From assembly GCA_910592345.1 (NCBI GenBank), contig CAJVPI010000183.1, positions 1 through 44,749 of the forward strand: 44,749 nt of DNA. The letters are read 5' to 3'. Below, in pieces: positions 8,993 to 38,189 of this stretch. How positions within the stretch are numbered: the stretch's first letter is position 1; the number at the start of each line of letters is the position of its first letter. Below the pieces are notes generated by a model. That model ran no database searches. It was given only the letters and a program-made list of their open reading frames with translations, and was not told the origin of the DNA. This DNA is from Paraglomus brasilianum (lineage: Eukaryota). The position numbers and the translations under genes were made by a program.

Positions 8993-9070
8993 TTTTTGCG
9001 AAACTTCAAAGTACAAGGCTTTTTGTATCACACTACTTGAATTTTTTCACACTGTATACCATAATAAATA

Positions 9071-14824: not shown

Positions 14825-17800
14825 ATGTTCCTATTCACTATACAAAATCGCAACACATTTCTTCTTGCCCTTCCTACTCTTCTCAGTTTTCCTATATCTT
14901 CTAATTCTCAAATCTCTTCTCCCAATCCATATCCGGGACCGCGGGTTGATCATTGCGCATTCGCCTACAAAAACCGCTTTTACGTATATGGTGGTGTGGG
15001 CAATGTAAATGAGGGCAATGATAACCATTCCTACTTCAGTTACACCAATACGCCCTTCCATATAACAGATCCCAAATGGACTTCTCTGCCAGTAGCAAAG
15101 GCCACAAAAGTTAGTCGGCCAGCGTGCTCTGTTACATCAGATGGTATCTTATACGTGACTGGCGGAGCAGATCCAAGCGATAATAAGTATGCCGGCATTC
15201 AATCGTTTGATTTGAAAAAAAGTGCTTTGGGTTTCTGGGACACACCAAACACTAGGGGATTAAATACGAGTCAACATTTGTCACATCGACGTGGCCACAA
15301 GTCCATTGTCGTAAAAACGTTATCGGAAGAAGTGTTGTTTATCTTTGGAGGGTCTGAGTCGAACGATGCGTTTATTTTAAATGTAAAAAATTCAACTTGG
15401 GAGGCTGTACATACAGGGGTGAGTATGCAAATAGTAAAAGAATGTGAATGATTACGCTAGATCCATAGAGTATGGTGCGTTGATAAGTCAACCGTAGGCG
15501 CCTGTTAATGATAGTATGTCACATATAACTTGACATCCAGTTATTCTAATTATTCTCTGCCGTCATTCATCGTCTAGCCTGACGCTCCACCATCCATGGG
15601 CGCATTCGCCATAACTTCCTCTAAAGATAAAATCTATATCATTGGTACTCCCACCGAAGAGTCTGGCAGAAACCTGTGGGCATTCAATATTCCAAAGAGG
15701 AGCTGGTTTAATCCGCATATTACCGTGGATATTCCTATGAATGTCCACGTTGAGTGTGCAGGGACACTTAACAATACGATTTATTTGATTGATTCGGGTA
15801 ATTCGTCATTAATGTGGAAATGGAATTTGGGTGAGTTGAAATGAAAACGTAGTTACATATTGCACGAGTTGTTGCAAATTAAAAAATCTCATGTTTTGCG
15901 CGTTTTGAAAATAAATAGCTGATAAGAGCACAACACGCTTTACGCCGGATCGTACTGGGGCTGGCCTGCAGACTTATAACTATGCTTTTGCACAGTTGCC
16001 TGGCAGCGATGTTTTTATTGTAAGCTTCTCATACTTAAACATGTCTGTACCATTATTATAGTCTATTTATATTCCGCATATTAACTTCTATATTAACATC
16101 CACTTTCAAGACCTATGGCGGGAAAACCGGGGTCAAAGCAACCGATAGCTTAGCCGCATTCAACATGACCCAAAATGTTTGGGTCACTCAAGTCAACAAC
16201 TTAACTAATATACCCAACAATCAGGACCATTATTATTATGGGCTTCTTGCACCTGGTCAAGAAGATTCATTCCTGAAACCACCACTACCACAAAAGATAA
16301 CTGCGGAATATGGAGCGAATCTGAAATATTCTGATCATACCATCTTTATCTGCGGACTTTTAATACTAGCAGTGGTCATACTAGTGACGGTGGTCAAGGT
16401 CATAGTTTCACGCTTGCTTTTGTATAGACGGAAAGAATATAAAAAAAAGGAGGAGGAGCTGACCATAGTGGAAACTTGTGGGGCTTTTGGAAGCAACACT
16501 GAAACTGGTTCTCAGAGGGACAGTGTGACTTATCGACCACCCAATTTTGAAGCGTCTGATTTTCGATGCGAACATTACTCGATTTCGTCAGACACAGTTT
16601 CGGTTCCCGACTTTCAAATATCTGCAACTTCACGCCTTACGGTGAAACTGAACTCTACTCCCCCTACTCCATCGTCAATTGTAAGCGAGCTCCGTCGACA
16701 TAAAGTGACGTCCATGACATCCGAATCTTCATCTACTTCGATTTCTCCGTCGGCTCCAGAAGGTGCTATTCTAGATAAGTACAAACTCAAGGGGGAGCCA
16801 GCATTCGGCGTCAGCAAATCCGTTTGTTATGCAAAGGATGAGACTGTGAATGAAGACGTGATGGTAAAGTTTTTCTCAGACTATGATTCATTCGATCGCG
16901 AAGTTATGATGTTAAAGTTTCTTCGATCGAAATTCGTTGGTGCATTGCGCGGCGACGTATTCCATGTTTCCGATGCTGCTGATTGGAAATATGCTATGAT
17001 CATGGACTATTATCCTATGAGCTTGGATAACCTTATCGTTAGCAGAACCGAGACTATGGATGAATTATGCGTGAAGATAGTGGTAAAGTCATTAGCACAA
17101 GCAATACAGTATGTTCATAGTCACGGAATAGTGCATCTGGATATTAAGCCGGGAAACTTTGTACACGAGGTTGGAGACGTGAACAAATGGAGATTGATTG
17201 ATTTCGAGGCGGCAAGGGTTGACGGAGAAGAAGATGTTTATAAGAGTACATTAAGATATGCTCCGCGTAAGTATTGAGCAGTTATTTATATTATCGAGCC
17301 TTTGAAAGGATTTTGAATTCTGTGGCATACTGATTTTTTTTCTTCTTTAAACACAGCCGAACTAATCAATGTGGATGCATTGCGTACTAGTATTAAAGCA
17401 GATACATCGATGGACATGTGGTCGTTTGGGTGTACAATATATGAGTTGTATACTGGAAGTCCTCTGTTCTTAAATGATCAGGAGGCTACTGCTAAATTAT
17501 TGGACGCATATTATACGCGGCGCTTTGAATTTCCTGTTAAAAAAGTGCCTGACGTTCAGGCACAGCATGTACTTGAGAAGTTGTTAGTCATTAATCCTCT
17601 GAAGAGAGCTTCAGTTGAGGAAATTTTAAGAGGAGCATATTTGACTGGTGGTGCTGATAGCGCTCAGGTATATATATCATCAATTCTATTATTGCTGTTG
17701 CTGTCTGTCTCCCGCCGCTTGCAAACACTCACCTCATACTTTCTTGCTTTATAAAGATATACGAGATGCAGTCAGAATCCACCGAGAGAATCATCAACAC

Positions 17801-18559
17801 CCTAAACCAGAATACAAACGTTGTTCTTTCCAACATGCAAGAGGCCACTAATATGATATTGTCACAATTCGATGTGGTCGTGAATAGTATATCTGATACT
17901 AGAGATGCGAGCGTCCCCCGCTTGTTCATGTTATTACCAGGAAAAAAGCCTCACTCAGTGTTCAAGCCAAAGGCTTGGGGAAAGAATACATTCGTAGTCC
18001 ACATTCTTTGTGAAGGTCATGCTTCTGATAATAGCAAAGCCCATTTCACTGACCATCCTGGCTACATGGTATGTTTATTCAATGACATATGTTTTTGACA
18101 AGATATACAAAGCGGTTCGCACTTATTAATATTGTCTATATGTTTGTTCAGATACTTAATCCGAAACCGTTTCTTGCCAAGGTTGGCCCATACCTCTGTA
18201 TCTTGGCCACTCTCATAGGCTCGGCTGTCAGTTTATTTACAGGACTGCAACTGTCGGACAAAATAACAGCCAATATATCATCTGGCCCTATTGATTACTT
18301 TAGAAAAATAGGCGAAGTTATTGACGCAATAGAAACGGATGGGTCTGTTACAAGAGATTTAGCAGCAGTTCAGAACGATCCACTCAATAAGATGATATCA
18401 GCGCAAGGCCCTGCACTGCGTGAATTTAAAGCGTTCCTGTCTGATAACGATCCTTTGCGCGAATTCGGTGGATTGCATCGTATTACCATGAGTGATGGAC
18501 GATGGCGATGGGTTTGTGATAGTTGCAAGGAAAGAGCACATGGAAACCACGGATATTAG
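14825..18559 (+). CDS. Kelch-ectodomain receptor-like Ser/Thr kinase, copy 1, about 1044 aa: SP-Kelch-TM-kinase-C-terminal Cys/His domain
   Basis: Exons 14825-15418, 15578-15830, 15919-16019, 16111-17266, 17357-17667, 17757-18068 and 18152-18559 splice in frame with GT-AG introns (3135 nt). Start context is CACCATG and the leader is hydrophobic, ending SNS-Q. Kelch motifs: PRVDHC..FYVYGG, LYVTGG, RRGH..LFIFGG, FITYGG. TM: IFICGLLILAVVILVTVVKVIV then RRKEYKKK. Kinase: VMVK, HLDIKPGN, DFE, YAPPE (split by an intron), DMWSFG. Confidence 0.92.
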
Positions 18560-18791
18560 AATTGTAGGTGGCTATATAGTTGCGATATGAGTTATTAACA
18601 GAATTGATATATTATAATATTAATGTGTACAGTTGAGAGTATCAATAGATATAATAATCTAGTTAGTCTTTATTGACATTACAGTCGAACGTAAAAGGAA
18701 CACAATTGGACACTTATAGTGCCGTTCTATTATAGTCATTATTCACTTATCAAAATAATAGATAAATTTGATATTTTCTAAATAAATTACA

Positions 18792-18928
18792 CAGTGAAAT
18801 TCACTTTAACGAAATCTCACTTGAACGAAGATGGCTTATAACGAAGTATTTTTCTGGAACCAGTTCGAAGATTTATATATAGAGTTATATAACGTTGAAT
18901 GAAGAATTCACTTGGGCGAATTTATCTG
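18792..18928. mobile_element. Short Tc1/mariner-type MITE relic
   Basis: CAGTGAAATTC at the left end and GAATTTATCTG followed by TA at the right end, with internal (T/G)AACGAA repeats. Confidence 0.4.
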
Positions 18929-19261
18929 TATAACTCGAGCTTGAGTTGTGAGGGGCTTCGCCCCTTTTACTTTTGTGATTGCGTTTCTGGTTAGAACTTG
19001 AAATTTTAAAGCGGCCCGTCTTATAGTTTAGTGTAATAGTTGGATTATTAGATTTTTTGATAGTCGGAGTGAAATTTACGTGTCTAACGCGAGTGTTAAA
19101 ATGGTATTGAGAGTTAGGCGGTCAGATGTCTTATTTATTAAGAGTCGTATTGTCAGATTGGAATAATTCTGTTTCAATCCTGACTTACTACTATGTCAAG
19201 TTTGTTGTATGCATACTAATATTACTCGAATAAAGTACGGAAGACATTGGTTGACTAACGC

Positions 19262-19650
19262 AATTTACTAGTAAAACATATGAAAAAACCTTTTGAAAAA
19301 ATCTCTCTTTCTGCAAACACTATACATGGCAATAATTTTTATATGGTTTTGAAACTAATTGACTGTGCTGTTTGAAAAAAATAACAGTAAATTTTAACAC
19401 ATTATTATAAAGTTGTAGCTAGATAAATTGTTATGAAATGATAGTTATATAAAAATATACTAATCCAGATACCTGTTATATGTGAGATTAATAATAATAA
19501 TCATTAAATTTTACTGTTATTTCTTTTTTCAAAAGTGCCGTCAATTACTTTCAAACCCATATAAAATTTATTATCACTTAGTAATAGTGTTTGCAAACAA
19601 GAGAGATTTTCGAAAAAAAAAAGTTTTTTCTTATGTTTTACTAGTAAATT
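19262..19650. mobile_element. Foldback/Mutator-like MITE with long imperfect TIRs
   Basis: About 145-bp arms, 19262-19405 and 19495-19650, for example AATTTACTAGTAAAACATA / TATGTTTTACTAGTAAATT and TGCAAACACTAT / ATAGTGTTTGCA. The spacer is about 90 bp. Confidence 0.8.
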
Positions 19651-19899
19651 TTAAAACAATCCCAGGCAATTCATTGGTTGACATACAAACGATCTTTTTG
19701 GGAAATCTTATACATTACCCAAGGGCTGAATTTCTTTTCCCCGTGTTAGTCTTAAGACATCATTCCGTCAATAAAAATAACATACTCTCCTAACCGTTCA
19801 AAGAAATATATTACCGACAATCATGCTTTGTTGCACACCTATGAATTAATACTGCGTTCAAGTTTCGCACTCAAGAAACTAAAATGTCTCAAATCATCG

Positions 19900-20750
19900 A
19901 ATTTAACTGAAAACAATTGGCATCTCTATTCTTGAATTCTATGTCAAGCCTTATTGTTACACCAGAAATTTTGAATGTCGCTTCAAAACAAAGTTTGCTT
20001 TGCGCGTTATAATTGATTATTTTACACATTGGTTACCAATCAATGCGCTATTTATTATCAGAAATGACTTGTATGATCTGACAGCTGAACTAATGCTTGC
20101 TGAGTATACAGAGTGTAGAAGTAACATAACCAAACTAAACGCTGAGAAAAAGTATAGAAATTAACAAAATGCATTCAATAAGATTATATTAAGCAAGAGT
20201 AATATAAACAAAGAAGAGCGTTATATAATTTTTAGACATAAATCCTGTTATTAACGAATAAACACTTTGACTCATTGAGAGTTAAAGTTTGAATAGACAA
20301 TACAATAAATAAAAATACGAATACGAGCCTAAAGTTTCAAAAATTTTGGTTTAACTCTTAAAAGCAAATACGAGTATTTGTTAGATTAATTAACACCCAT
20401 GAAACTCTTCGCATAACTAACCAAAACAATATTACTGTGAGAAATATTAACATTACAGATTACGGCTAATACTAATCTGCTATCATAAATTATGAGCTAT
20501 ATGATAACATGTTTAGCACGATAAACTTCAGATTAAAGTAATCACGCGTTTTGGTTTGCATCTCCCTGTAAAAACGTTCAATCTAGATTGTGATGATGTT
20601 TTTGTGGCATCTCCAACTAAAAAAGCGATATTACGTTTATGTCATACATTAAGTGATTGTAACGGGGGGTAATTACTACTTTATTCTAAATTTACATAAT
20701 CGTTAGTTAACTAATGGTCTTTCGTAATTGCTTTGTTAGAATAAATTTGA
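19900..20750 (+). repeat. Long copy of the recurrent module downstream of receptor kinase copy 1
   Basis: Shares AAACACTTTGACTCATTG, CATGAAACTCTTC, ATTACAGATTACG and TTACGTTTATGTCATACATTAA with 33.85-34.4 kb and 39.3-39.8 kb. Confidence 0.85.
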
Positions 20751-21500
20751 TACGGAGACTGTGATACAACGATATATCGTATGTGTATTTCAAATATTCA
20801 TAATTAATTTGGAATAGCTTATAATGATGGCTATATACTTAGCCCGGGATAGAACGTAATATCCAATGACTATATAGATAGTTCCTTTTTTTCACGTATT
20901 TGATAAATGATGTTATATACATCACTGATATTGCACATCAAGGCGTAGAATTGAACATAAGTTGCTTAATGCAGAGGGGGGAGGATAAGGAAAATTTATT
21001 GGTTTAGAGACGTTTTAGTGTCGTTCTTTAAATGGTATGAATGATGTCGTAAGACCCAAAGGAAAGAAGGTGTGTGGTACTTGGGTGGTGGCCGGTATAT
21101 AAGATTTTCCAAAAAATCTACACAAAGAAATACACCTTAACGGGGCATCAGGGGAAAATTAAAAGAAGTTGGTGATATTACAAGTGATAGCGTTGAAATT
21201 GTACCTAGGTGCTTACGATTTTTATAACACAGATTAAAGTAAAGCTCACATTATAATTATAGTTCATGTTCACGTAAAAACGTATTTAACCTCGGAATAC
21301 CCAAGATTTGTAATTAGCCGATATTTTGTAAGTATCTTGAGCAAAAAAAAACTACATTACGATTATGTCATACATTAAAAACGACGGGAACAGTAATAGT
21401 AATTGTAACGAGTAGATATTGAAATTACTACATTGCCTTTCTTTGTTCCAAATTTACATAAATCTTGGGAGGCGTTAGTCAACCAATGGTCTTCCGTACT
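20751..21500 (+). repeat. About 750-bp direct segmental duplication of 27921-28650
   Basis: TACGGAGACTGT, CCGGGATAGAACGTAAT, GTCGTAAGACCC.AAGGAAAGAAGGTGTG, AAGAAGTTGGTGATATTACAAGTGATAGCG and CCCAAGATTTGTAATTAGCCGATATT are collinear in both. Confidence 0.92.
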
Positions 21501-21517
21501 TTATTCGAGTACTATTA

Positions 21518-22207
21518 CAGTCATCCTTCGTTTATATTCCCACTTTGGAGCGGAGACTTTCTTATTCTAGGGATTATCTGAAGATATACCATATATTTAT
21601 TAATTGAGTAATACAAGAAATTTATTGGTTAATATGTACTTATATCATGCATATATCTTATTATGTTATCTTCCGTTGTAAATTCCTTTGTTCTAAAAAT
21701 TGTTTCGCAGTCTTAAGCGCCTAAACATGCGAGATAAGGAAAATTAAAGGGGAAGAATTGAACGTAAGAAAAGAGATGGTCAGAGGTAACTGTACTGTAG
21801 CTTTACTTTTTCAAAACGATACTATTTGTCCATTGCCTTTTTGTTACATAATACAGTGATAAACAAATCAATTGTTTATCATAACCAATAATCAATAAAA
21901 ACTGTAACATTTGCATGATACAATTCACTTTGTCTTGTTTTAAGCAATAAATTAACAAAGATCTGGTAGCAAATGAACATTGAAAGAAATTTCACATAAG
22001 CGCACAGTCCAAACTTGTATGCCAACTAAAAATTTAAGAGACGATGTTTTATGTAACACGAATGTGCATAGTAAGGTGGGATATAAACGATAATAGATTC
22101 TATGAGATACGATATTGGAATATTGGGGATAGGGATATATCTGAGTAGGATGCACCGAGAGAAATTTATATTGAGATACAATAGGGGATACAAATGAGGG
22201 ATGACTG
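21518..22207. mobile_element. Non-autonomous pogo/Tc1-mariner element, 690 bp, TA target-site duplication
   Basis: TA-CAGTCATCCTTCGTTTATATTCCC ... GGGGATACAAATGAGGGATGACTG-TA gives 24-bp imperfect TIRs. The empty site is visible in the paralogous module near 13675-13700 (GAGTATTATTATGGCACTAATGTTATC). Confidence 0.92.
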
Positions 22208-22619
22208 TATAGCATTAATGTTATCTTTCGAAACCACGTATAGTACTACTCCATGTATCAATGTTTAACCGGTTTAAATTAGGTTAAGATGCGTGTTACT
22301 GCAGTCCTGGTATAAAAATAGACTACACTGCTTGAGCGACGTTGCGCACGAAAACCAAAATTGGAATGTGAACACCAAAACTGGAGATGTTCATGTTTGT
22401 TTGTGTATGTAATGTTTGTTACCTTTTTGTGCACAGTTTTAGCATAGTACAAGATATATCGAGATGTCGTAATTAACTGTGAAACGGAAGCTTAATCATG
22501 AACAAATATTGTACAAGTTGATAGGACAGATTTAATACAATGGATGAAGGTTATGTCTGCGGTCCAGATTATTGACCTTGTTATACTAGACTGGCATCTT
22601 CAATTTGAATAAAGTCTTC

Positions 22620-24340
22620 CGTACAACAAAACTGATGATGTTGATTTGGACTCTAATGTTCAGCGACAATATCTTCATCATACGAAATCCAATACTTACT
22701 AGCCTCGTTCTTGAGTTGTTGGAATCGGATGACTGAAGGACATCAAATCAGGGACCGTATCACATTGGACTTGCCATTTAGGTATGCTAATAATGAAAAT
22801 AGGTCATTGTTTTAATGGAAATGACGGTCGGTAATTCCATTCACACACAAAGCTTCTATGACAAGGTTTGCCACTGAATTATTCAGCATTGTCGCTATAA
22901 TAATTGTGCCATTTTTTATACCAGGACTCACTCGCAGAAATATGCATCTTAGCAATCGATGGCAGATTTTTGCAGCAGGTAATACAGTCAGCTGATTTGA
23001 CATAGTCAAAATTCTGATATTCGCGGCTAATATTAAGAAGAACCTAATTAAACTGGTTAACACATTGATACACAGCATGTGGGATAGTTCATATCATCGC
23101 CGGCAATACTATAATAGTAAGACAAATGTACTCTAACAAAGCAGTTACAAATGACCATTGGTTGACTAACGCTTCTTACGATTCATGTAAATTTAGAACA
23201 AAGAATGCAATGTAGTAATTCAATATTTACCCATTACAATTACTGTTCTTGGACAATCCCGTAATTTAATGTATGACATAATCGTAATATCGCTTTTTTG
23301 TTGAGACATCTAAGCCCCTTACTAGTTGTCCACTCGGATTATTCGCTGGTTATTAACGAGCGTCTTACAAAAAAATGCAAACTACAACGTGCGATTACTT
23401 TAATCTGAAGTTTATTGTGCCACACACGCTACATCTAGCTCATAATTTATGATAACAGATAAGCCGTAATCTGTAATTTCAATATTTTTCACAGTAATAT
23501 TGCTTTAGCTGAGTTATCTGAAGAGTTTCATGGGTTTGAAAAACGGTTCTGTTTTAACCAAAACAAGCAAAATGTCTGCAAATACTAATTTTAATACTCA
23601 AAAATACAAATAATTCAACCAAACCAAGATTTGAAACTTTAGGATCATGCTCGTATTTCTGTTGGATTGTTTATTCAAACATGAACAATATTATAGCGTG
23701 AACTCCATAATAGCATATATGGTAAACTTGCTGCTTATGATTGCATCTGGAATTCTCAAAATTTGAAAGGCTAATATGAATGTTGACAAATATACCCTGC
23801 AAGTGAAAACTCTTTATCAAAATAATGGATATATCAATCGTTATGATATATAGGATCCCAATATAACAGCGACAAATCTTAATGGTAACGGGAATGCCCC
23901 TACTTGTCAATAAAGCTATCCAGCAGCAATTGTTTCTTTGATTGAAATGCAACTAGTTCAAAAATTCTAAATTGATATTATCTTGTTGCTCGAACAATTG
24001 CATAACCTCGGCAGCTTTGCAGGCTTTCCATCAAGACTGGTTGCAAGCTACCTTTTTTTTATACAAGTTTGCTGTTCTTCAGTGTATGTTTTTTCTTCTT
24101 GTCAGACATAGCTGACGTTCTGCGCGTTTGTTAAAGATTTCCTTTAATAGACTTGGCTTTCTATAAATTACGTTTCTACATGTTAAATATTCATTGTATA
24201 CCCTATTGACCAACCAAACAACCATATTAATCCGTCCTCGCAACTAACGCGAGTTACTATAAAATTTCATTATAATAATAACGAACGATTTTAACTGTGA
24301 CCAAAAAGAAGTTCTTTTGCAATGCGATTCCATTCTAACG
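22620..24340 (-). repeat. Inverted copy of the module region 38800-40245
   Basis: Reverse-complement matches include GGAAATGACGGTCGGT, CCAGGACTCACTCGCAG, TAAGCCCCTTACTAGTTGTCCACTCGGATTATTCGCTGGTTATTAACG, GACATAGCTGACGTT and TAACGCGAGTTACTAT. Confidence 0.92.
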
Positions 24341-24944
24341 TAGGTCTATTGTGACAAACTTTGACTGTTTACTGATAATAAAAAGTGCATTACTGTGGGG
24401 TTTTTTTAGCAACTAGTGTGCTAAATAATCAATTATAATGCGCAATAATAAGGCTGACATGGAAATATATGTCAATTGCTTTCAGGTGTATTTGGTTAAA
24501 TCAATTATGCAATCGATGAACAAAATGCAACTGAAAAGGTTTTTAGGGCGTCACATAATGCATCAAATTTACTTTTTCCGTTTTTCATATAACGATAGCG
24601 ATAGCTTTTTAATCATTCGATAATCCTCCGTATAAAATAATTAGGGTAATTAATCTAAAAGCATAACCCACTGCTCTTTGTTTTTATATTTATTTATCGT
24701 TATTATTCAAATTAATCTTTTGCTTATATTCCTCCGTCACTTGGACAAAATCTTCATCTTTTAAATCACTCACCAAAGTTTTTAACATGATAAATATTAT
24801 CAGCTTAAATATGCCGACTGCATTTATAATCCGGCATAGCATAATATTTACCGGGTCCTAAATGGTCGCGGTTAGAAGTAATTAAAGCATGATATCAATA
24901 AAAAAATCAAATTTAATAATGATTGAATATTATAGTTTTTTTTT

Positions 24945-26400
24945 ATTTGTATTTGAGACAAATTATCTTGCAGCCGAAGAACGCATCGTTTTCTTGGTTT
25001 TTGAGTTTGCCAGAACATCTGTTATAGTTAATATTAATATAACTTTGACCTAAGTTCCATGGTGTAATTTTGGCGATTTATGCTGTGGCCGAGTTGACCA
25101 TCGGACGTACAGTACATTCCGGTTAGCTAAATTTTGCATTCCATCAGACAAACTTATTGGTCAGATTCAAGTCAATGTCATGTGAGCGCAACACGGTTGC
25201 TGGGGTAGTTATCATTTGTCCGGAACAGTCTTTAGGTTATTGCAACAAAAATGGCATAGATATTGTAGGGCTTCTAACAGGCAACTCGTCTTCCTCATTA
25301 TTCTGATTTTCATTATCTTCTAGCATAACGTCTATATAAATTTATATCCCGGATTAAGTACGTGTACGAGTAATGATGCGATTCTTCTCTCCAACAATGA
25401 CAATTATCTTAGATGAATTTCAAACGAGAATACATAATCATCTAACACTGAGAGTCAGAATAAGATTTGATAATTCAACGATTGCAGAAATATTAGAGAT
25501 GAATATGAAAATGCAAGCCCGGGTGACTGATGCCAATCGTTTGTGGAAAGACTTATTAATCTAAAAACTTACATTATGACTACATGCGTCAAGTACTGGC
25601 TTGACAGATTAAATGGATTATTTATTTAGAAAGATTAAGTGAAGTGTTAAGTCGACTCTCGAAGGAAATCGAATACCACCCGTTCTGTAATGTGAAAATT
25701 AGACGTTCAATAAATGCGCAATCAAGCTTTTAGTTAGTCGTGTAATTTTTATTGTTGTCTCGTGATAACTTGTTCCGCGGGACATTTCCACAAAATTCGA
25801 AAATGATTAGCAAGTTTAGCTTGTTCCGTGATCGCTATCTGGCGGGACATTTTAAAATCGATATTATTCCGTGACTTATAACATTGTTTTGTCACGTCAA
25901 TGATAAAATCTCGCACTTACATAACTATCGTTGCCACACACATTTTAACAAAATGGCTTGTACCTGAGATCGAATACTGATGATGTTCAGTAGTATCTAT
26001 TTAGGAAGGAATATTCAATAAGTTTACCCCAATTTTCTCTGCGTACAATAATGTGCGTTAGAACACTCATCCCAAAAAAACTCGAGCTTCTTAAATCAAC
26101 CGCCGTATTTACGAAAATCACTCTTAACTGTTAACTGCCCAATCAAAGAACTAATTAAATTATAGCCTCATCCAGATACACTCTCCCCTGTTTCTCATTC
26201 TAAAGAATAAAAAGTTTGTTTACTCCGATTCGACAGCTGCCGAATACAAAGGCTAATGATTGATTTGTCCAGTCAACCATCCCGTGATCTCGGGAAAAAA
26301 AAAGATCAGTATTAATCGCCAACCAAAATCAACAATCCAAGAAACTGACTTCATCCACAATAAATTAAGATTCACTACAGTTTAAAGACAGAAAACCCCA
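24945..26400 (-). repeat. Inverted paralog of 9925-11880 with its own insertion at about 25210-25940
   Basis: Blockwise reverse-complement identity with the 9925-11880 segment, for example TATAGCCTCATCCAGATACACTCT.CCCTGTTTCTCATTCTAAAGAATAAAAAGTTTG. Confidence 0.9.
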
Positions 26401-27920
26401 ATATTCAGTTCAAATAATTTCACTATAATAACAAATATGACAAGCACGGTTTGGCAGATGAAATAGAACGATTAAGTAGATAAATGATGGTGTCGGTTAC
26501 TTAGAAGATTTTATAAACAATTAGTCAATGAGTTTAATAGATCGTATAAAGATACAATGATGAAAAGAAAGAACACGGCAGCAAAATGGTCGAGTTATAA
26601 ACAATTTAGTCAATGAATTTAATAGATCGTAAAATATTATTCGCCAAAAATTACACAGAAAACGTATGTATCGAAATGTCATTCTTATGAAATAGAACGA
26701 GCGGGAATATGAATGATGTTAAACGATAGTAGTTACTTGGAAGATTTACAATTGATCCGCAAATCTGTGAATAAACTATGACATAAATTTTGGGCCCTGT
26801 ATTAGCGTTGATGTAAGGACATCTATTTGGACAATTAATGCATCTATTATGTTGTGAGATAAATATTTATAAAAGAACACAGTCGGGATAGCCAAATTAT
26901 ATTCTATGCCATATCATTTCGCATTTGAGTGTTGTCTTTACAGTGGCAACGGCCCTCAACAAAGTTCGTGCTCGTAGAACGTTTGTCGAAAATTTTGACG
27001 AGACATGGCATTTGTATTTATTTGTGGGTGAAATGCTTAGAGAATAGTGTAAGGGTAATAAAAATTATGTTACATAAATCAGACGACAAAGCAAGATGAT
27101 TTGGAAAGTTTAAACAATAGTAAAGAGACGTTAGTAAAAGTACATATGGTAGCGCTATTGTCGTGTAAGTGAGTGATGGTTTCTGCCACTTACATAAGTT
27201 ATCAAGGGAAAAATATGTTGTGGCAAGTCAGGACCGAGTTTCTTTTAGAATGTTTACTTTTAAACGCATGCGAACGGGTTGATCAGCAAAATTAAGAAAT
27301 TCCCCCACAGGCTTAAATAAATTTACATCGAATTTGTTTTCTTCATCACGCGAATTGTGGTGAAATCTATGTTAACGAGCATTTTTATAATTATTTGCGA
27401 TTACATATGAATAAAAAATTAGCGATGTGTTGACGAGTATTATGCGCGCGCGTAGGAGATGGGCGACAAAAGAATGATAAGAATTTCAGGCAAGAGTGGA
27501 TAGTGGCGTATTTCAATCTGTCATCGTTGGACAAAGGTAAATATTTGAGTAATTGATAAGGCAAAAGCTTTTTGGGTTAGTGGCGTATTTCCAAGTTTAG
27601 TGGAGGTAGAAAACAATCGTTTTTTTCAAAAATTGAAATTTAAACTGAGAGATCAAACTTTTTACTTGACAAAATCAATCAGTGAACGCTGTCTGTGGTT
27701 AAATTGCGTTATTTTATTTGTTATCGTATGGTATAACAACAAAAGAACAATTGTTCTCAAAAGGAATCAGCGAACGTTCTCTGTCGTGAAATGGTATAAC
27801 GACAAAGAGTTGTTTTTTTAGGGGAAAGGGCGCATTTCTAATCAGGTGAGGTATAGTGTTGAGGTGTAAACATATTGTGGCTATAGAAATAAAAAGGGAA
27901 TACAATGATACCGTAGATGG

Positions 27921-28720
27921 TACGGAGACTGTAATGCAGCGATAACGTTTATCGGAAAGGCTCTTATGTGCATTTCAAATATTCATAATAAATTTGGAAT
28001 GGTTTATGTGCGGCTTAAACTAAATCGTCATATGTGAAATAATGACTATATACTTACCCCGGGATAGAACGTAATATTCAATGACTAGATAGTTCTTTTT
28101 TTTTTTTTCCCACGTATTTGATAAATGATGTTATATACATCATTGATAAAGAAAATTATTGGTTTGAGATATTTTATTTTTTAAGCCAATAAGAAACATG
28201 AACATAATGTTGTTCGTTATATTTCTTTAAATGGTATGTTTTTTTATTGACGGAATAATGTCGTAAGACCCGAAGGAAAGAAGGTGTGCGATGCTTGGGT
28301 GGTGGTGGTATATAAGATTTTCCAAAAATTAAAAGAAGTTGGTGATATTACAAGTGATAGCGATGAAATTGTACCTAGGTGCCTACGGTTTTATAACACA
28401 AACTAAAGTAAAGCCCACATGTTCATGTAAAATGTATTTAACCGCCGATGAATACCCAAGATTTGTAATTAGCCGATATTGTGTGAAGCAAGTCAAGCAA
28501 AAAAACTACATTACGATTATTATTATGTCATACATTAAAAACGACGGGATCGTCCAAGAACAGTAATTGTAACGGGTAGATTTTGAAATTACTACGTTGC
28601 CTTTCTTTGTTATAAATCTTGGAGGCGTTAGTCAACCAATGATCTTTCATCTGTTTTACTATTATAATAATACAATAATATGAACTATCCCACATGTATA
28701 GTACAATATTACTGTTTGGC
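27921..28720 (+). repeat. Duplicate of 20751-21500 running into a module core, upstream of receptor kinase copy 2
   Basis: Collinear with 20751-21500. The core GCGTTAGTCAACCAATG is at 28625, followed by ATGAACTATCCCACATGTAT. Confidence 0.9.
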
Positions 28721-29608
28721 AATCAAAGGCAGGCGAACCGGGAAAGTAAATCGCAATTTAAACTGGGTAACATGGCACTATGAGATAATATCATATCGCA
28801 TTAAATGCAAAATAAGAATTACTTCCATAATAGCTGACAGCGTACATTATTGGTTGTTAGTAGCAGCTGAGTGATATTCCGCTTGCAGCTTGAGAACCTA
28901 ATTCAAACCGGCTAACACATTGATACATGCATATTACTGCAAACGCATCGCAGTATAAAAATGACGCCATTGCATCAACAAGAACTGCAACTAACTCTTT
29001 TCCTTGTTCAATTTTCGCACTAACCTTCAAATACCCGTTTATCGTAAATTTTCGTCGTGAAACAACATTGTACGAAAGTTTCATCATCATGGAAGTGTCT
29101 CGAACAAGTTTGAAATAAAGAATCGAGATATATTGACATCTTTCTGTAATACTAAAAATGTAATCAGTGCAACAACACTGTATGTCGGAGAAAATCTCCG
29201 TCAAGACTCTATTTTAAAATCACTTAAAGAATGTAACGTCTTGTACGACAAAGCCCGCAGACAAAGATTTTTGTTAAAGCTTCGTTCATTGTGTGAACTG
29301 AAACAGGAGCATGCGGTTTGTCGAGACTCACTTGTACTATGAAAAAAACCGGTTTAGAGATGTCCTGTCTTTGACCACATTGCAACGTGCGATAAACAAA
29401 CTAATTAACAGTTACTTGTTTTGGAATGTTGATTCCAATTCTGCGACTCCTCCATTTGTCCATAAAATGCTCGACAATATCCTCTTGACATTAGCAACAT
29501 GATATCGTCTTAGCACTATCGACTTTTTTTTTTTTACATCGCAGGGTTTTCTCTCTCTTATTCCGTTCATTACTCTGGGAGTAAAAAGTTCATTGCCTTA
29601 TCACCACC

Positions 29609-32600
29609 ATGTTCCCATCCACTCTGCATAATCCCAACACATTTCCTTCCGTCTTTCTTCTTGCCCTTCTTACTCTTCTCAGTTTCCCCATCTCTTCTAA
29701 CTCTCAAACCAGTAATATCGATCCAGCTCCGGGACCACGGAGTGATCACTGTGTATTCGCCCACAATGGCAGCTTTTACGTATTTGGTGGTGTGGGCAAT
29801 GTAAATAAGGGCAATGATAACCATTCCTACTTTAGTTACATCAAAGCGCCCTTCGATGTAACAGATCCCAAATGGACTTCTCTGCCAGTAGCAAAGGCCA
29901 CAAAAGTTAGTCGGCCAGCGTGCTCTGTTACATCAGATGGTATCTTATACGTGACTGGCGGTGATCCAAGTGATAATAAGTATGCCGGCATTCAATCGTT
30001 TAATTTGGAAAAAGGTCAATCGGGCACTTGGGACACACCACCAAAAACTAGGGGATTAAATACGAGTCAATATTTGTCGCATCGACGTGGCCATAAGTCC
30101 ATTGTCGTAAAAACGTCATCGGGAGAAGTGTTGTTTATCTTTGGAGGGTCTGAGTCGAACGATGCGTTTATTTTAAATGTAACAACTTCAACTTGGAAAA
30201 CTGTAGATACAACAGGGGTGAGTATGCAAAATAGTAAAAGAATGTGAATGATTACGCTAGATCCATAGATTATGGTGCGTTGATAAGTCAACCGTAGGCG
30301 CCTGTTAATGATAGTATGTCACATATAACATATGAGATTAATTTGACATCCAGTTATTCTAATTATTCTCTGCCGTCATTCATCGTCTAGCCTGACGCTC
30401 CACCATCCATGGGCGCATTCGCCATAACTTCCTCTAACGATAAAATCTATATCATTGGTACTCCCACCGAAGAGTCTGGCAGAAACCTGTGGGCATTCAA
30501 TATTCCAGAGAGGAGATGGTTTAATCCGCATATTCCCGTAGATATTCCTATGAATGACGTTAAGTATGATGCAGGGATATATAACAATACAGTTTACTTG
30601 ATTTCGTCATCGTCAATGTGGAAATGGAATTTGGGTGAGTTAAGAGTGAAACGTTACACGAATTGATACACAGTACTAATCCGAATTTCGCGTAGTTGAT
30701 AACCATACTGATACACAAGCCCGTACTGGTCTGCAGACTTATGATTACACTTTTGCACAGTTGCCTAACGGCGCTGTTTTTATTGTAAGCTTCTCATACT
30801 TAAAGGATGTCTAGTCTATACCATAATTATTATCTCCTGCATATTAATAATTAACTTCTATCCATTCTCTCAAACTAATTTCAAGACCTATGGCGGGAAA
30901 ACCGGCTCCAAAGCAACTGATACCTTAGCCGCATTCAACGTGACCCAAAATAATTGGGTTACTCAAGTCAATAAACCCGATCTTCCCCATGATCCTCCCC
31001 AAAATCCTCCCAATGATCCTCCGAATACCGGTATCAACAACAACTACAACAAAGTTATATTAGTATTAGAATGTGGAATACCGCCGTTAATACTATTGGC
31101 GGGCATAGTTTCAGGCTTGTGTTTGTATAAACGGAAAAAAAATAAAAAAGAGGAGGAGGAAGAGCTGACAATAGTGGAAACTTGGGGGGCCTTTTTTGGA
31201 AACAACACTGAAACTTTTCAGAAGGACATTGAAACTGGTTTTCGGAAGAGTGCTGAAACTGATTCTCAGAGAGACAGTGTACAGATCTATCGACCACTCA
31301 ATTTTGAAGCGTCTGGTTTTCGACGTGAACGTTGCTCAATTCCGTCAGACACAACTTCAGTACCCGACTTTCAAACATCCACAACTTCACATCATACGGT
31401 GAAACCGAACTTTACCCTCCCTACTCCATCATCAGTTGTAAACGAACTCTGCCCTCGATATAAAGAGACGGCTTTTCCATCGGCTCCAGAGGGTACTATT
31501 CTATCTAACCGATACAAACTCAAGGGAGAGCCAGCATTCGATGTCAGCAAATCCGTTCGTTATGCAAAGGATGAGACTGTGAATAAAGACGTGGCGGTAA
31601 AGTTTTTCTCAAACAAAGATTCATTTGATTGCGAGGTTAAGATGTTGAGATCTCTTCGATCGGACTTTGTTGGTGCGTTGCACGACGCATTTGACATTTC
31701 CAATCCCACTTATTGGAAACATGCTATGATCATGGACTATTATCCTATGAGCTTGGATGTCTTTATCCTTAGCAGAACCGATAGCTTGGATGAATTGTAC
31801 GTGAAGATGATAGTGAGGTCATTGGCACAAGCAATACAGTATGTTCATAGTCACGGAATAGTGCATCTGGATATTCATCCTGGAAACTTTGTACACGAGG
31901 TTGGAGACATAAACAAGTGGAGATTGATTGATTTTGAGTCGGCGAGGGAAGATGGAAAAGAAGATGTTGATATCAGTACATTGGGATATGCTTCGCGTAA
32001 GTAGCATTCTACCGAGCCTTTGAAGGAATATTTATTTCCGTAACATACTGATTTTTCTTTCTCTTAACACAGCCGAACTAATCAATGCAAGTGCATGGGG
32101 TACTAGTATTAAAGCAGATACATCGATGGATATGTGGTCGTTGGGGTGTACGATATACGAGCTGTATACTGGAAGTCCTCTGTTCTTAAATGATCAGGAG
32201 GCTACTAATAGATTATTGGGCGCATATTATACGAAGCACTTTGAATTTCCTGTTAAAAAAGTATCCGACGTTCAAGCACGCCACATACTCGGGAAGTTGT
32301 TGGCCGTTAATCCTATGGAGAGGGCTTCAGTTAAGGAAATTTTAAAAGGAGCATATTTGACTGGCGGTGCTGATAGCGCTCAGGTATATATATCATCAGT
32401 TCTACTATTTTTGTTGTTGTCTGTCGTCTGCCGCTTGCAAACACTCATCTTATGCTTTCTTGCTTTAAAGATACGCAATATGCAGTCAGAATCCACCCAG
32501 AGGATCATTAACACCGTACACCAGAGTACGAACGTTCTTCTTTCCAACATGCAAGAGGCCACTAATATGATATTGTCACAATTCGATGTGGTCGTGAATA

Positions 32601-33266
32601 GTATATCTGATACTAGAGATGCGAGCGTCCCCCGCTTGTTCATGTTATTACCGGAGAAAGAGTCTTACAAAATGTTTAAACCATACGCTTGGGGAAAAAA
32701 TACATTCATAGTTCACATTCTTTGTGAAGGTCTCATTGCTGATAATAGCGAAGCCCATTTCACTGACCATCCTGGTTACAAGGTATGTTTTGCCAAAAAC
32801 GTGCGAATACGATGTTTTCAATGCAGTCGCGTTTATTAACAAGACCAATATTTTGTTACAGATATTACATGCAAACCAGTTTCTTGCCAAGGCTGGCCCA
32901 TACCTCTCTATCTTGGCCACTCTCATAGGGGAGGCTATCTGTTTGTTTACAGGAATAAGAAAAATCCCTTTTAAGACAGACATCGACAGGATAGTGTCCA
33001 ATCAAAGTAAATACTTCAATCAATTATGTGAAGCTATTAACCAGGTAGAAACAGATAAGTTTGTTGCAAGCAATCTAGAAGCAGAACGTGATCCAGTGGA
33101 GTGGATGAAATATGCACAAGACGCTGCACTACGTGAATTTAAAGCGTTCCTGGAAGTGAATGATCCTTCGGGCGAATTCGGTGGATTGTGTAGTATTACC
33201 ATGCGTGATGGACGATGGAGATGGGTTTGTGATAGTTGCAAGGAAAAGGCAGATCACGGACATTAG
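29609..33266 (+). CDS. Kelch-ectodomain receptor-like kinase, copy 2, about 1026 aa
   Basis: Exons 29609-30217, 30391-30634, 30696-30784, 30886-31996, 32073-32383, 32471-32782 and 32862-33266 (3081 nt), with the same intron positions and phases as copy 1. It has a signal peptide, Kelch GG motifs, a Pro-rich stalk and TM VILVLECGIPPLILLAGIVSGLCLY then KRKKNKK. Kinase: VAVK, HLDIHPGN, DFE, YASPE. C-terminus: PRLFMLLP..HILCEG..WRWVCDSC. Confidence 0.92.
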
Positions 33267-33849
33267 TTGTAATTTTAGCTATTAACAGATTTGAATATTA
33301 TAATAATTAATGTGTATAGTTGAGGATATAATAATAGTGGGTCTTTATTGACATTATAGTCGAACATTCGTAAATGGACACTTGTAGTGCCGTTCTATTA
33401 TAGAGTTTGCTAGTCATACTTATTGAAATCATATTAAAGTTTTCATCACCTAACAACTTTCTTAACGATTGATATACGTGAGTAATTGTAATTACGGTTG
33501 CATTTTGTTCAAAGTATACCTGAAGCAATCTCGGCATATCTAGTTTTTAACACACCAGTTGCAAAAATCTACATCAATGTGCTACTTAATATCAGAAATG
33601 ACTTGTAATCTGACTTTTTCCAATTTAATCGCCAAGCGAAAGAGAGATAATCCCCTTTTTAGTATATATCTTTTTGGAATAAAAAGGATTCTTGGCGGGT
33701 TGACTTTTTTGGGACTTTGGCAATTAATTTATCTTGTCACTGCCGAAACTTGAAGCTAAAGAAATTAAAATAGTTTCCGAAATTATTCTTTTTGTAACTT
33801 GTATCACTTGGTAATCCATAGGTTGACGCCGAAAAAAAAGTACAACCTT

Positions 33850-34720
33850 TAACAGAATGCATTCAATAAGTAAGTAAAACCATAACAAGTAAGTAATACA
33901 AACAAAGAATAGCGTTATACAATTTTCGGGCCAAACAGTTAGTAAACCATGCTACTAACCGAGTAAACACTTTGACTCATTGTGAGTTAAAGCATGACGA
34001 ACAGGAGCCCGGAGTTTCAAATTTTTGCCTTTTGATCATGAGAAAATAAATTAACACGAGACTGTTTTATTATTATCAAACCATCATATAAATATTACCG
34101 TGAAATTACAGATTACGACTTATCATGATAAGATGTTTAGCACGATAAATTCATCACGCTGCGGTTTGAATTTCCCTGACGGGGCTTAGATGTGACATCT
34201 CCCAAAGTATCTCAACAAAAAAGCCACATTACGTTTATGTCATACATTAAACAAGAAGAACAGTGATTGTAAGGGGTAATTACTACATTGCTTTCCTTGT
34301 TCTAAATTACATGAATCGTAAGAGGCGTTAGTCAACCAATGGTCTTTTGTAATTGCTTTGTTCGAGTACATTTGCTTTACTAATATAGTATTGATATTAT
34401 CTCCGAAACCACTTGCGGTTTAACATGATGATATGAACTATCCAGCATATGCTTGAACTATCCCACATGTATAGTACAATGTTACGCCATTACAATTATG
34501 CCATGTATTGATGTTAATGTGCTAACCCCGGTTTAACTTGGGTATTACTGCTACTTGCTTGCAGCAAATATCTGCCGTCGGTTGCTAAGATGCGAGTGAG
34601 TCCTGGTGTAAAAAAGGCACAATTGTTATAGTGACAATGTCAGTGGGGATGGTATTACGTCATTTCCATTAACGATTATTTAACGTTAACAATGACAAGC
34701 TAGTGTGATACGGGCTGTCC
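33850..34720 (+). repeat. Module copy between receptor kinase copies 2 and 3
   Basis: Core at 34325; collinear with 39.2-40.2 kb and, inverted, with 22.75-23.6 kb. Confidence 0.85.
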
Positions 34721-35241
34721 GATTTCAACTGTTACCGTTATATTGTATTCCATTCGCAGCCAATTTTGCGTCATATTTCTACTACAAGAACGAGGCTAGT
34801 AAATCATTACAGTCAATGAATGCAACAAAATGGATGAAGACAAAGATTGATGTTCTTTCAACGCAAACAATGAACAGCTAAATTTTAATCTTCAGCCATT
34901 GTACTACATCTGTTCTATCAACTTGTACATGGTGAAACGGGTGCCATTATAGACACCAATTATCGATAAATAAACTGTCATATCAATTCCTCGAATAGGC
35001 AAGGTGCATTCCTTGCACAAAAAGGTAACGTTACATACGATAAACAAACAAACTGAACATCCAGTTTAAGGATTCAGATTCCAATTTTGGTTTCCGTGCG
35101 CAACTGCTCTGGTTCCATAAATACTCGAGATATCCTGCCAGCATTAACAACATTCTTTTTTTTTATCCCTCCTTAGGTATAGAGCAGAGTTTCACTCTTT
35201 AATTAACCCGGGGCTACCCACTCAATTTCCTCCTTCCCACC

Positions 35242-38146
35242 ATGCTCTCGTCCACCATGCATAATTTTAATACATATCCTTCGGTCTTTCTTCTCTCCAT
35301 TCTCACTTTCCTCATTTTCCCCATCTCTTCTAACTCTCAAACCGATCCAGCTGGACCACAGATCAATTACTGTGTATTCACCTACAATAGCAACTTTTAC
35401 GTATTTGGTGATGAGGGCAATAATAACCATCCCTACTTTGTTTACACCAATACGCCCTTCGATGTAACAAGTTCCCCATGGAATTTTACGCCAGTAGCTA
35501 ATGCCACAAAAGTCTTTCGACCAGCATGTTCCGTTACTTCAGATGGTATCTTATACGTGACTGGCGGAGTAGACATAGACAATGGTAAATACATCGTCCA
35601 ATCGATTGATTTGAAAAGCAGTATTTTGGGCTCTCGGTACACGCGTCAATGTTTGTCGAATCAATGTGATTTTAAATCTATTGTCGTAAAAACGTCATCG
35701 GAAGAAGTGTTGTTTATCTTTGGAGGGTCTGAGTCGAATGATGCGTCTATTTTAAATGTAAGGAATTTGACTTGGGAAACTGTACCTAATGGGGTAAGTG
35801 TGCAAAATAGTAATAGAATGAGATTGATTACATTAGATCCATAGATGCTGATAAGTCAACCGTAGGCGCGCCTTGTTGATGATAGTAATTTTTTCTCTCT
35901 GTCATTTATCGTCTAGCCTGACGCATCGTTCATAGACGTACACGCTATAACATCCTTTGAAGATAACATCTATATCATAGGTACTCCAACCAAAGACTCT
36001 GGCAAGAGCATATTAATATGGGCGTTTAATATTCCGAAAAGGAGCTGGTTTAGCCTAGATACTACCGTGAATCTTTTTGCGAATGACCAGAATGCGTATG
36101 CAGGGATTCAGTTGATTAATTCGGATGATTTGTCATTCTCAGTGTGGAAGTGGAATTTGGGTGAGTTGGAATGAAAACGTAATTAGACTAATTGAGAGCA
36201 AATCTCATGCTAATCCGAATTTCGGCGTTCGAAAAATAGCTAATAATAGCGCAACATTCCTTGGGACGAACGGGTACCCTTTTGCACAGTTGGCCGATGT
36301 TCTTATTGTAAGCTTGTTATATTTAAAACATACCTGCACCATAATTATAATCTATTTATCTCCACGCATGTTGATCTCTATCCATTTTACCTCCAATTTC
36401 AAGGTTTATAACGGTGATTATGATAGCTTAGCCGTATTCAACATGACCAAAAATGCTTGGGTTATTCAAGTCAACAACGCCACCGGCGTACCCACCACCA
36501 GCCCCAACGACCCCAACGACCCCAACGGCCCCAACGACCCCAACGACCCCAACGGCCCCAACGGCCCCAACGACCCCAACGACCCCAACGAACTTTCCAC
36601 ACCGGTTCAGTCAAAATCTTTGCCGAATATTATTGGTGCAGTTGGAGTATTGGTGGTTCTAGTGGGCATGGGCTTGTTCTTGCATGGCCGGACCAAAAAT
36701 AAGAAAAAGAATGGGGAGCAGCCGGCAATAGCGGAAACTGATGCGGCATCTGAAAGCAGCATCGAAACTGGTTCTCAGAGAGACAATTCAGAGATTTGTC
36801 AACTACCTACACTTGAAGTATCTGGGCTTCAAAATGAACATTATTCATTTTTGTCCGATACTACTATTAATATGAACAGTTCGCTGATTTATCAATCAAA
36901 AATTGAGCATTGTTCATTTTTGTCCGACACTACTGTAGTATCCGACTTCTCAACATCTCCGACTTCACATCGTACAGTGAAACTAAACTCTACTCCCCCT
37001 CCTCCATCGTCACGTATAAGCGAACTCTATACTCAATATAAAGTGACAACTATTACATTCACTGCTTCTCCATCAGCCCAATCGGATGCAATTATATTCA
37101 ACAAGTACAAACTCAGCGGCGGGATGCCAACGTACGATGTCAAGAATTCTGATCGTAACTCTGTTCGTCGTGCAGAGGATGAGACTATGCATGAAAATGT
37201 TGCGGTAAAGTTTTTCTCAAACAAAGATTCATTCGAGCGTGAGGTTGTCATGTTGAAGCATCTTCGATCGGAATTTGTTTGTGCATTGCGCGACGTATTT
37301 GACATTTCCAATTGGAAATATGCTATGGTCATGGACTATTATCCTATGAGCTTGGATAACTTTATCATTAGTAGAACCGGAACCACGGATAAATTATACG
37401 TGAAGATAGTGGTGAAATCGTTAGCACAAGCAATCAGTTATGTTCATAGTCACGAAATAGTGCATCTGGATATTAAGCCGGGAAACTTTGTCCACGAGGT
37501 TGGAGATGTGAACAAGTGGAGATTGATTGATTTTGAGGCGGCGAGGGTCAATGGAGAAGAAGATGTTGATAGCAGCACATTAAGATATGCTTCGCGTAAG
37601 TAGTGAGAAATATTGAAAAACCATGATTTATATTCGAGCACTTGTAATTTTTACTCATTAATATGCAAACTTACCTTTTCCTCCTTACACAGCTGAAATA
37701 ATCAATGCGGCTACATTGCATACTAGCATCAAAGCAGATACATCGATGGATATGTGGTCGTTAGGGTGTACAATGTACGAAGTATATACTGGAAGCCCTC
37801 TCTTCCCAAATGAACAAGAGGCTAATGATAAATTATTTGAAGCATATGATACAAAGCACTTGGAATTGCCTCTTGATAATGTAGAGGATATTCAAGCAAG
37901 GCATGTACTCGAGAAGTTGTTAGTCATTAACCCTATGAAGAGAGCTTCAGTTGGGGAAATTTTAAGAGGAGCATATTTTCATGGTGGTGCTGATAGTATT
38001 CAGGTATATATATATATATTGCTATTGTCTGTCGCCTGCTGCTACCGTCTGCAAACACTCACCTCTCTTATTATAATGATTTAAAGATATACAATCTGCA
38101 GTCAGAATCCGAGAAAATCATTAACATCCTAAACCAGAGGTCGTGA
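35242..38146 (+). CDS. Kelch-ectodomain receptor-like kinase, copy 3, about 808 aa, truncated just after the kinase; may be a young pseudogene
   Basis: Exons 35242-35793, 35917-36160, 36240-36307, 36404-37595, 37693-38003 and 38087-38146 are open in frame. TM: IIGAVGVLVVLVGMGLFL then HGRTKNKKK. Kinase: VAVK, HLDIKPGN, DFE, YASPE. A deletion of about 64 nt in exon 6 gives ...LNQRS*. Several Kelch GG motifs are degraded (YVFGD, VYNGD). Confidence 0.8.
36503..36592 (+). repeat. Coding 9-bp tandem repeat, 10 units of CCCAACG(A/G)C (last unit CCCAACGAA), encoding a (PND/PNG) stalk
   Basis: Reads PNDPNDPNGPNDPNDPNGPNGPNDPNDPNE between the last Kelch blade and the TM helix. Confidence 0.95.
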
Positions 38147-38189
38147 ATAGTATATCTGGTACGAGAGACGCGACTGTGCCGAGATGATT

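Follow-up and report, generated by a model that had tools for sequence, protein, structure and literature searches.

Do fungi, a kingdom reported to lack receptor-type Ser/Thr kinases, encode such proteins after all? The question is raised by 44,749 nucleotides (nt) of DNA from Paraglomus brasilianum (contig CAJVPI010000183.1, assembly GCA_910592345.1; the whole stretch is called the window below), on which three paralogous genes combine a Kelch propeller, a predicted transmembrane (TM) helix and a Ser/Thr kinase. An earlier note had proposed the arrangement from the letters of the window and placed it in an arbuscular-mycorrhizal (AM)-type fungus, with which the source of the DNA agrees. Since the predicted proteins span the membrane between propeller and kinase and have relatives in three fungal orders, they are likely to be surface receptors of a kind that fungi were thought to lack.

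The DNA of the window is eukaryotic and low in GC. Three regions of about 40% GC (14.8-18.6, 29.6-33.3 and 35.2-38.1 kb), all on the plus strand, are paralogs whose long blocks share 68-81% DNA identity. The spliced open frames of copies 1, 2 and 3 encode 1044, 1026 and 808 amino acids (aa) with zero internal stops. All 17 introns are of the GT-AG type, 61-173 nt long and at positions common to all copies, and the three splice-assembled paralogs were found where the earlier note had located them. Its account of the architecture also held, although it had missed a C-terminal tail of about 240 aa, the HLDIH motif of copy 2 and the break in exon 6 of copy 3. The copy 1 model equals residues 31-1074 of the public protein P0001, and copy 3 corresponds to the public protein P0004, which omits the stalk repeat.

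In all three copies, exon 4 alone encodes in one frame a continuous stretch from the last Kelch blade through stalk, helix and linker as far as the activation segment of the kinase, so the link between ectodomain, helix and kinase is independent of splicing. This bears on mis-splicing as an explanation, in which gene finders fused a secreted Kelch gene to an adjacent membrane kinase gene. The joins of exons 1-4 are predicted, and retention of intron 1, 2 or 3 leads to a stop within 16 codons in eight of nine cases. Moreover, three word-index protein searches (queries: exon 1, against longer proteins; P0003; and the tail alone) retrieved no full-length public copy 2 protein. Such a fusion is nevertheless highly improbable: the last blade, needed by the propeller, sits in the exon of helix and kinase, the introns are too short for a promoter, their positions and phases are common to the three copies, and 14 of the 15 proteins found by the tail alone contained Kelch, the other one being labelled partial. 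None of the four exon-1 read-through peptides (0/4) was present in the protein collection.

Exon 1 of copies 1, 2 and 3 matched the Kelch family PF24681 (E-values 2e-17, 4e-18 and 3e-7), residues ~36-345 of copy 1 were assigned to Kelch by Pfam, and an Attractin/LZTR1 propeller match had an E-value of 7e-21. The structure model contained about 24 strands in residues 40-345, where the predicted local distance difference test score (pLDDT) was mostly 55-85. Its N-terminal part matched solved six-bladed Kelch domains in Foldseek (E 4e-14 for the NS1-BP Kelch, target template modelling score 0.77). The ectodomain agrees with the Kelch pattern of six four-stranded blades with GG and Trp motifs, and the proposed Kelch ectodomain is thus backed by Pfam and by the fold of the ectodomain model. 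Kelch propellers bind peptides and sugars: the solved matches include the degron-binding KLHDC2, and Pfam also lists a sialic-acid mutarotase family.

Topology was compared in 20 rows (17 public proteins and the three own models; the partial P0029 and the duplicates P0001 and P0004 were left out), and leaders and helices were called by hydropathy and a cleavage-site motif. Leader hydropathy was at least 2.1 in 16 rows, the misses being three partial records and P0025, and a small-x-small-Gln cleavage site was present in 17/20. The leaders of all three copies end in SNS-Q. That of copy 1 is the weakest, its hydrophobic core being broken by Pro, and in the public model it is hidden by the 30 residues added at the N-terminus of P0001. 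An internal helix with a hydropathy of at least 2.0 was found in 19 of the 20 rows, and a second one above 1.9 in none. The best 19-residue hydropathy was 3.13, 2.44 and 2.47 in copies 1, 2 and 3, with 8, 6 and 5 Lys/Arg in the 20 residues after the helix and 2, 1 and 1 before it. The Lys/Arg excess after the helix extended to 17 of the 19 rows; the numbers before and after were equal in P0006 and P0026. A signal-peptide-like leader and a single helix with a basic stop-transfer cluster, both noted earlier, were recovered in every copy, and type I topology is supported as far as sequence can show. Leader, folded ectodomain, one positive-inside helix and catalytic residues are together in keeping with a working class of type I receptor Ser/Thr kinases. 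The helix is preceded by a low-complexity stalk of 28-72 residues rich in S/T/N/G/P. The linker behind it contains tandem S/T/P/H units of ~13 residues in the P. occultum paralogs P0005 and P0029, which adds possible phosphorylation sites.

The seven sequons that had been listed for copy 1 (NHS, NTS, NST, NNT, NSS, NMT and NLT) were all present, but they are not an enrichment: the counts of 7, 7 and 6 in copies 1, 2 and 3 compare with 4.8 (P=0.18), 4.6 (P=0.15) and 5.2 (P=0.42) in composition shuffles. The sequon argument therefore holds through family conservation only. Among conserved Asn columns, five of ten before the helix are sequons (in 20/20, 19/20, 17/20, 15/20 and 13/20 rows) and one of 13 after it, that one being the G-loop; 31% of the ectodomain Asn and 12% of the cytosolic Asn lie within sequons, in rows that are related. 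Two propeller Cys were conserved in 19/20 and 20/20 rows. The family-conserved sequons, the two Cys and the cleavage site support a secreted propeller, in which the leader would be cleaved, the sequons glycosylated and one disulfide formed.

Leader, sequons and disulfide suit any secretory compartment, and the proteins might be endomembrane sensors with the propeller in the lumen of the endoplasmic reticulum (ER), Golgi or vacuole, reporting luminal cargo or stress like Ire1 and PERK. According to the available part of PMC10463195, the chief example of a single-pass Ser/Thr kinase on record for fungi is Ire1. Being low in copy number and steadily conserved outside Paraglomus, the family would also suit the role of a housekeeping sensor. 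The stalk rather resembles wall-crossing surface proteins, neither an Ire1 RNase nor a luminal family was matched in Pfam, and tandem duplication with fast change in Paraglomus would be more typical of non-self sensors. Overall, a luminal role is considered unlikely.

Exons 4-5 matched Pkinase in Pfam, and with its motifs this confirms the full kinase described behind the S/T-rich linker. The beta3 Lys, alphaC Glu, H-L-D, catalytic Asp/Asn, D-F-E with its Asp, and alphaF Asp were kept in 20/20 rows. The G-loop of the family is GGNN, of which one Gly is left in copy 1 and none in copies 2 and 3. In 3/20 rows the Lys of the catalytic loop was replaced (His in copy 2 and P0002, Gln in P0005). The HLD of the catalytic loop makes all members non-arginine-aspartate (non-RD) kinases. 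HLD is also present in CAMK-group kinases, so the non-RD likeness to the plant immune receptor EFR is suggestive only. Pfam scores were 108-125 bits for Pkinase and 46-55 bits for PK_Tyr_Ser-Thr in five of five proteins (e.g. 108.7 vs 47.4), and the order was reversed in the two tyrosine kinase-like (TKL)-type neighbours in the window. The best 60 of 1660 PDB matches included STK33, TTK, Snf1, ULK3, MELK, CDPK1, GSK3 and MAPKs with similarly weak scores; one further row was named 'non-specific serine/threonine protein kinase'. By sequence, the kinase is not TKL/receptor-like kinase (RLK)/Pelle-, tyrosine kinase- or Ire1-like and belongs to no clear group. The earlier claim that it differs from plant RLK/Pelle and Ire1 is in line with the roughly two-fold higher Pkinase scores and the lack of an Ire1 family match, and an independent assembly of the receptor kinase is suggested.

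Non-RD kinases also invite an explanation that involves no soluble ligand. In many of them activation-loop phosphorylation is not needed, and a propeller bound to the wall or to a partner could position a constitutively active kinase or sense wall strain. HLD in all 20 rows is consistent with this, as is a propeller that is as conserved as the kinase across orders (49-60% vs 52-54% identity between Paraglomus and the other orders), which would suit a fixed self partner. Wall or polarity anchoring is still regarded as quite unlikely, as the long S/T linker and the additional tail suggest regulated docking, and EFR, likewise non-RD in its catalytic loop, is ligand-regulated according to the available part of PMC10317173.

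The tail extends ~240 aa past the kinase in copies 1 and 2, and copy 3 stops early in exon 6. No match to it was found in Pfam, NCBIfam, PDB sequences or the ESM Atlas. The tail model (pLDDT 57) had no Foldseek match at E<=0.001, and the best VIA-align hit (Z 6.2) was a generic helical hairpin. A homodimer prediction scored 0.01 with the alignment unused and is evidence for neither side. The motif pattern is reminiscent of the C-terminal part of COR in fungal and algal Roco-type proteins. This resemblance is a lead at most and is unsupported: Pfam gave no COR family match to the tail at E up to 10, and no Roc GTPase or GTPase family in any full-length member. A scaffolding or oligomerising role of the tail may be suggested.

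The exon 1 search gave five matches among 527 candidates, and the P0003 search 22 among 7993, of which nine were family members and 13 generic kinases (23-37% identity). All 15 tail-only matches (among 1056 candidates) contained a kinase. Full-length Kelch-kinase relatives with 46-63% identity were obtained from ten named species: Paraglomus brasilianum, P. occultum, Ambispora leptoticha, A. gerdemannii, Geosiphon pyriformis, Gigaspora margarita, Dentiscutata heterogama, D. erythropus, Racocetra persica and Acaulospora morrowiae. These represent Paraglomerales, Archaeosporales and Diversisporales, the placement of Dentiscutata and Racocetra being presumed. The predicted proteins of the three orders share the domain order, the propeller fold, one internal helix and the kinase motifs. 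No member from Glomerales or from outside Glomeromycota was among the word-index matches, a weak indication of absence.

In a metagenome scan, 80 loci were kept (111 relatives among 297 stretches), of which L001 and L002 carried the tail. Downstream of the helix end, L001:1-2010 has no intron in either kinase or tail, and its tail contains one in-frame TGA. The locus spans the three downstream intron positions and so supports those joins. Its GC content (53%; 0.66 at third codon positions vs 0.40-0.43 in the window copies) hints at a family member in a higher-GC organism, and the family may reach beyond the ten named species. L002:1-1542 is a decayed Paraglomus-like copy in which kinase and tail survive as broken pieces and part of a Kelch exon lies on the other strand. 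Between its kinase and tail pieces lies a fragment which, from its motif, we take to be HMG-box-like. An ESM Atlas search with P0023 returned ciliate and sponge clusters at 0.90-0.92 that combine Kelch and kinase, irrespective of topology. A prokaryotic or viral origin was without support, the hits (5/26 and 4/32 candidate stretches) being generic kinases of 23-29% identity.

A quick tree of 21 rows grouped the rows by order. P0003 and P0030 (91-93% identical) represent a slow Paraglomus form, and the conserved low-copy form of the family has an intact GGNN loop and HLDIK. The window copies fell into a long-branched Paraglomus-only group (branches 0.16-0.46 vs 0.05 for P0003). The earlier idea of a local tandem invention is replaced by an old low-copy gene kept in three orders, of which the tree and motifs indicate that the window copies are Paraglomus-specific, faster-evolving and partly degenerate duplicates. 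The copies, above all 2 and 3, could then be decaying, with no function of their own, in a family that is real. Long branches, the lost GGNN loop, the catalytic-loop Lys-to-His change of copy 2, the broken tail of copy 3 and the existence of the decayed L002 elsewhere favour this. All three frames, however, are open over 808-1044 codons, the ratio of nonsynonymous to synonymous substitution rates (dN/dS) of the kinase is 0.42-0.53, and the full-length P. occultum paralogs P0002, P0005 and P0029 carry the same His/Gln change, which has thus persisted across species. Decay is considered rather unlikely, though a real concern, and would be a matter of the copies rather than of the family. Between copy 1 (15419-15577) and copy 2 (30218-30390), intron 1 shows 91% identity, compared with 49-85% for the other introns, and dS is lower in the propeller (0.16) than in the kinase (0.26); gene conversion is possible.

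Plant RLK/Pelle kinases likewise consist of a leader, an ectodomain, one helix, a juxtamembrane linker and a Ser/Thr kinase, and have duplicated in tandem. The Kelch kinases differ from them in the Kelch ectodomain, the Pkinase-type scores, DFE and the unique 240-aa tail. Fungal Ire1 likewise combines single-pass type I topology with a Ser/Thr kinase that is followed by a further domain, but the Kelch kinases lack Pfam matches to its luminal and RNase (KEN) domains, and their tail was unrelated in any search. Animal attractin and MEGF8 are single-pass proteins with an extracellular Kelch domain. The propeller fold is shared with these and with cytosolic KLHDC2, LZTR1 and NS1-BP, all without a kinase; the solved matches are 14-19% identical.

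Apart from Ire1, two surveys, as far as available, report no fungal Ser/Thr kinases of the receptor type (PMC6733946, PMC10463195). In the first, no receptor-kinase architectures were found in a fungal sample that includes Rhizophagus; the fungal sample of the second is 18 Dikarya only, and its main text, in the available part, does not mention Kelch. Supplement 8 of PMC10463195, also available in part, contains signal peptide-Kelch-TM-kinase rows for Trypanosoma brucei (AAZ11428, AAZ11429) and a Kelch-TM-kinase row for T. cruzi (ESS66992), so the domain order is not unique among eukaryotes. These trypanosomatid proteins have the same domain order, are longer (1424-1642 aa) with longer ectodomains, and were absent from the matches of the three word-index searches; compared by listed domain order, the two groups may be convergent. 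PMC3886924, PMC5293756, PMC5909441, PMC8778642, PMC4778271 and PMC1266030 deal with how abundant kinases or Kelch proteins are in AM fungi, with Kelch proteins that these fungi secrete, or with trypanosome membrane kinases; their available parts contain no Kelch-TM-kinase fusion in fungi. The full-text literature searched (most subscription journals and bioRxiv supplements lie outside it) held no description of the Kelch receptor kinase family, in accord with the claim that the architecture is undescribed in fungi.

The genes probably encode ligand-regulated single-pass surface receptor Ser/Thr kinases of Glomeromycota. By analogy with plant and animal receptor kinases, which suggests location, ligand, clustering and activity, the Kelch propeller would lie outside the cell and the Ser/Thr kinase in the cytosol. 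Ligand binding to the propeller would cluster the proteins, and clustering would lead to phosphorylation of the S/T-rich linker and of downstream targets. Copies 2 and 3 would likely have a weaker or changed output, as decoys, co-receptors or decaying copies. The known partner of Geosiphon is a cyanobacterium. Since the propeller is about as conserved as the kinase, and Geosiphon has kept the family but the searches retrieved no Glomerales member, a ligand of a general kind (fungal wall, self or microbial) is likelier than the host-plant ligand considered earlier. Most probably it would be a glycan or peptide that any glomeromycotan hypha encounters, whether from its own wall, from other hyphae or from microbes.

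Several observations weigh against a ligand-regulated surface receptor. Topology rests on hydropathy, P0025 has no leader and P0009 no helix, and the sequence evidence is alike for plasma membrane, ER, Golgi and vacuole. Single proteins had no sequon excess beyond shuffles (6/20 proteins tested, P 0.13-0.50). The propeller dN/dS among the copies (0.75-0.85) did not differ significantly from that of the kinase (Fisher P 0.07-0.23). The G-loop and DFE are non-canonical, kinase activity is only predicted, and the full-length structure model was poor (mean pLDDT 47). In the gene models, Kelch exons 1-4 are joined on the strength of splice consensus and of gene predictions in other genomes, which share methods; the 30 residues upstream of the copy 1 start in P0001 were found in no relative; and that no full-length public copy 2 protein was retrieved counts here as well.

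A more far-reaching version is held tentatively. Glomeromycota would have possessed their own receptor kinases (Kelch, a non-RD kinase of no known group and a new signalling tail) since the base of the phylum. These would recognise molecular patterns of symbionts or microbes, and the active, kinase-weak and tail-less copies into which Paraglomus diversified them would form a receptor/decoy set. If true, it would give fungi their first ligand-gated surface Ser/Thr kinase.

The coordinates of the features are collected in Table 1. Two multi-exon TKL-type kinase genes, which match PK_Tyr_Ser-Thr with E-values of 1e-27 and 1e-29, flank the cluster. They are paralogous (71% identity across 2345 nt) and both without the catalytic-loop Lys (HCNLHGGS, HCDLHGGN); the pair may belong to a larger duplicated segment. 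The spacers between the copies are occupied by dispersed repeats of one family, 70-90% identical and in either orientation, which could have driven the duplications.

Table 1. Coordinates of the three Kelch kinase genes, their predicted parts and neighbouring elements in the window.
Feature	Position	Strand	Remarks
Copy 1, whole gene	14825-18559	+	7 exons, 1044 aa
Copy 1, exons	14825-15418, 15578-15830, 15919-16019, 16111-17266, 17357-17667, 17757-18068, 18152-18559	+	
Copy 1, signal-peptide-like leader (residues 1-28)	14825-14908	+	SNS before Gln; 11-residue hydropathy 2.12
Copy 1, six-bladed Kelch propeller (exons 1-4)	14930-16200	+	Two family-conserved Cys, family-conserved sequons
Copy 1, predicted TM helix (residues 393-411, best window)	16339-16395	+	Basic cluster behind
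Copy 1, Ser/Thr-rich juxtamembrane linker	16450-16775	+	32% S/T
Copy 1, Ser/Thr kinase, split by intron 4	16780-17640	+	beta3 Lys, alphaC Glu, HLDIKPGN, DFE, YAPPE, DMWS.GC
Copy 1, C-terminal tail (exons 6-7)	17757-18559	+	Long helix, then alpha/beta part ending W-V-C-x-x-C
Copy 2, whole gene	29609-33266	+	7 exons, 1026 aa
Copy 2, exons	29609-30217, 30391-30634, 30696-30784, 30886-31996, 32073-32383, 32471-32782, 32862-33266	+	
Copy 2, predicted TM helix	about 31054-31110	+	
Copy 2, catalytic loop	31876-31878 (His)	+	HLDIH, not HLDIK
Copy 3, whole gene	35242-38146	+	6 exons, 808 aa, tail lost
Copy 3, exons	35242-35793, 35917-36160, 36240-36307, 36404-37595, 37693-38003, 38087-38146	+	
Copy 3, stalk of Pro-Asn-Asp/Gly repeats	36497-36592	+	In frame; absent from P0004
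Copy 3, predicted TM helix	about 36629-36685	+	
Tail-exon remnant behind copy 3 stop	38140-38190	+	Out of frame; P0003 859-875, 71% identity, other frame
TKL-type kinase gene	6576-9046	-	
TKL-type kinase gene	40546-42916	-	
Fragment resembling TKL-type kinase genes	2210-2406	+	Opposite orientation to those genes
Dispersed repeat copies	22745-23547, 39401-40203		~10 shorter copies, e.g. 13556-13685, 21330-21517, 28474-28712, 34181-34402

The family is real, conserved and apparently undescribed: a receptor-type kinase with an uncharacterised tail in a kingdom reported to lack such kinases. A conserved receptor-type kinase in three orders of AM fungi overturns the generalisation that fungi lack receptor kinases. 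That the model genus Rhizophagus apparently lacks the family would account for its having been overlooked. Much is known of the receptor kinases on the plant side of the symbiosis, and the receptors on the fungal side are largely unknown. The Kelch kinases are concrete candidates, amenable to expression, for the means by which these obligate symbionts perceive their surroundings.

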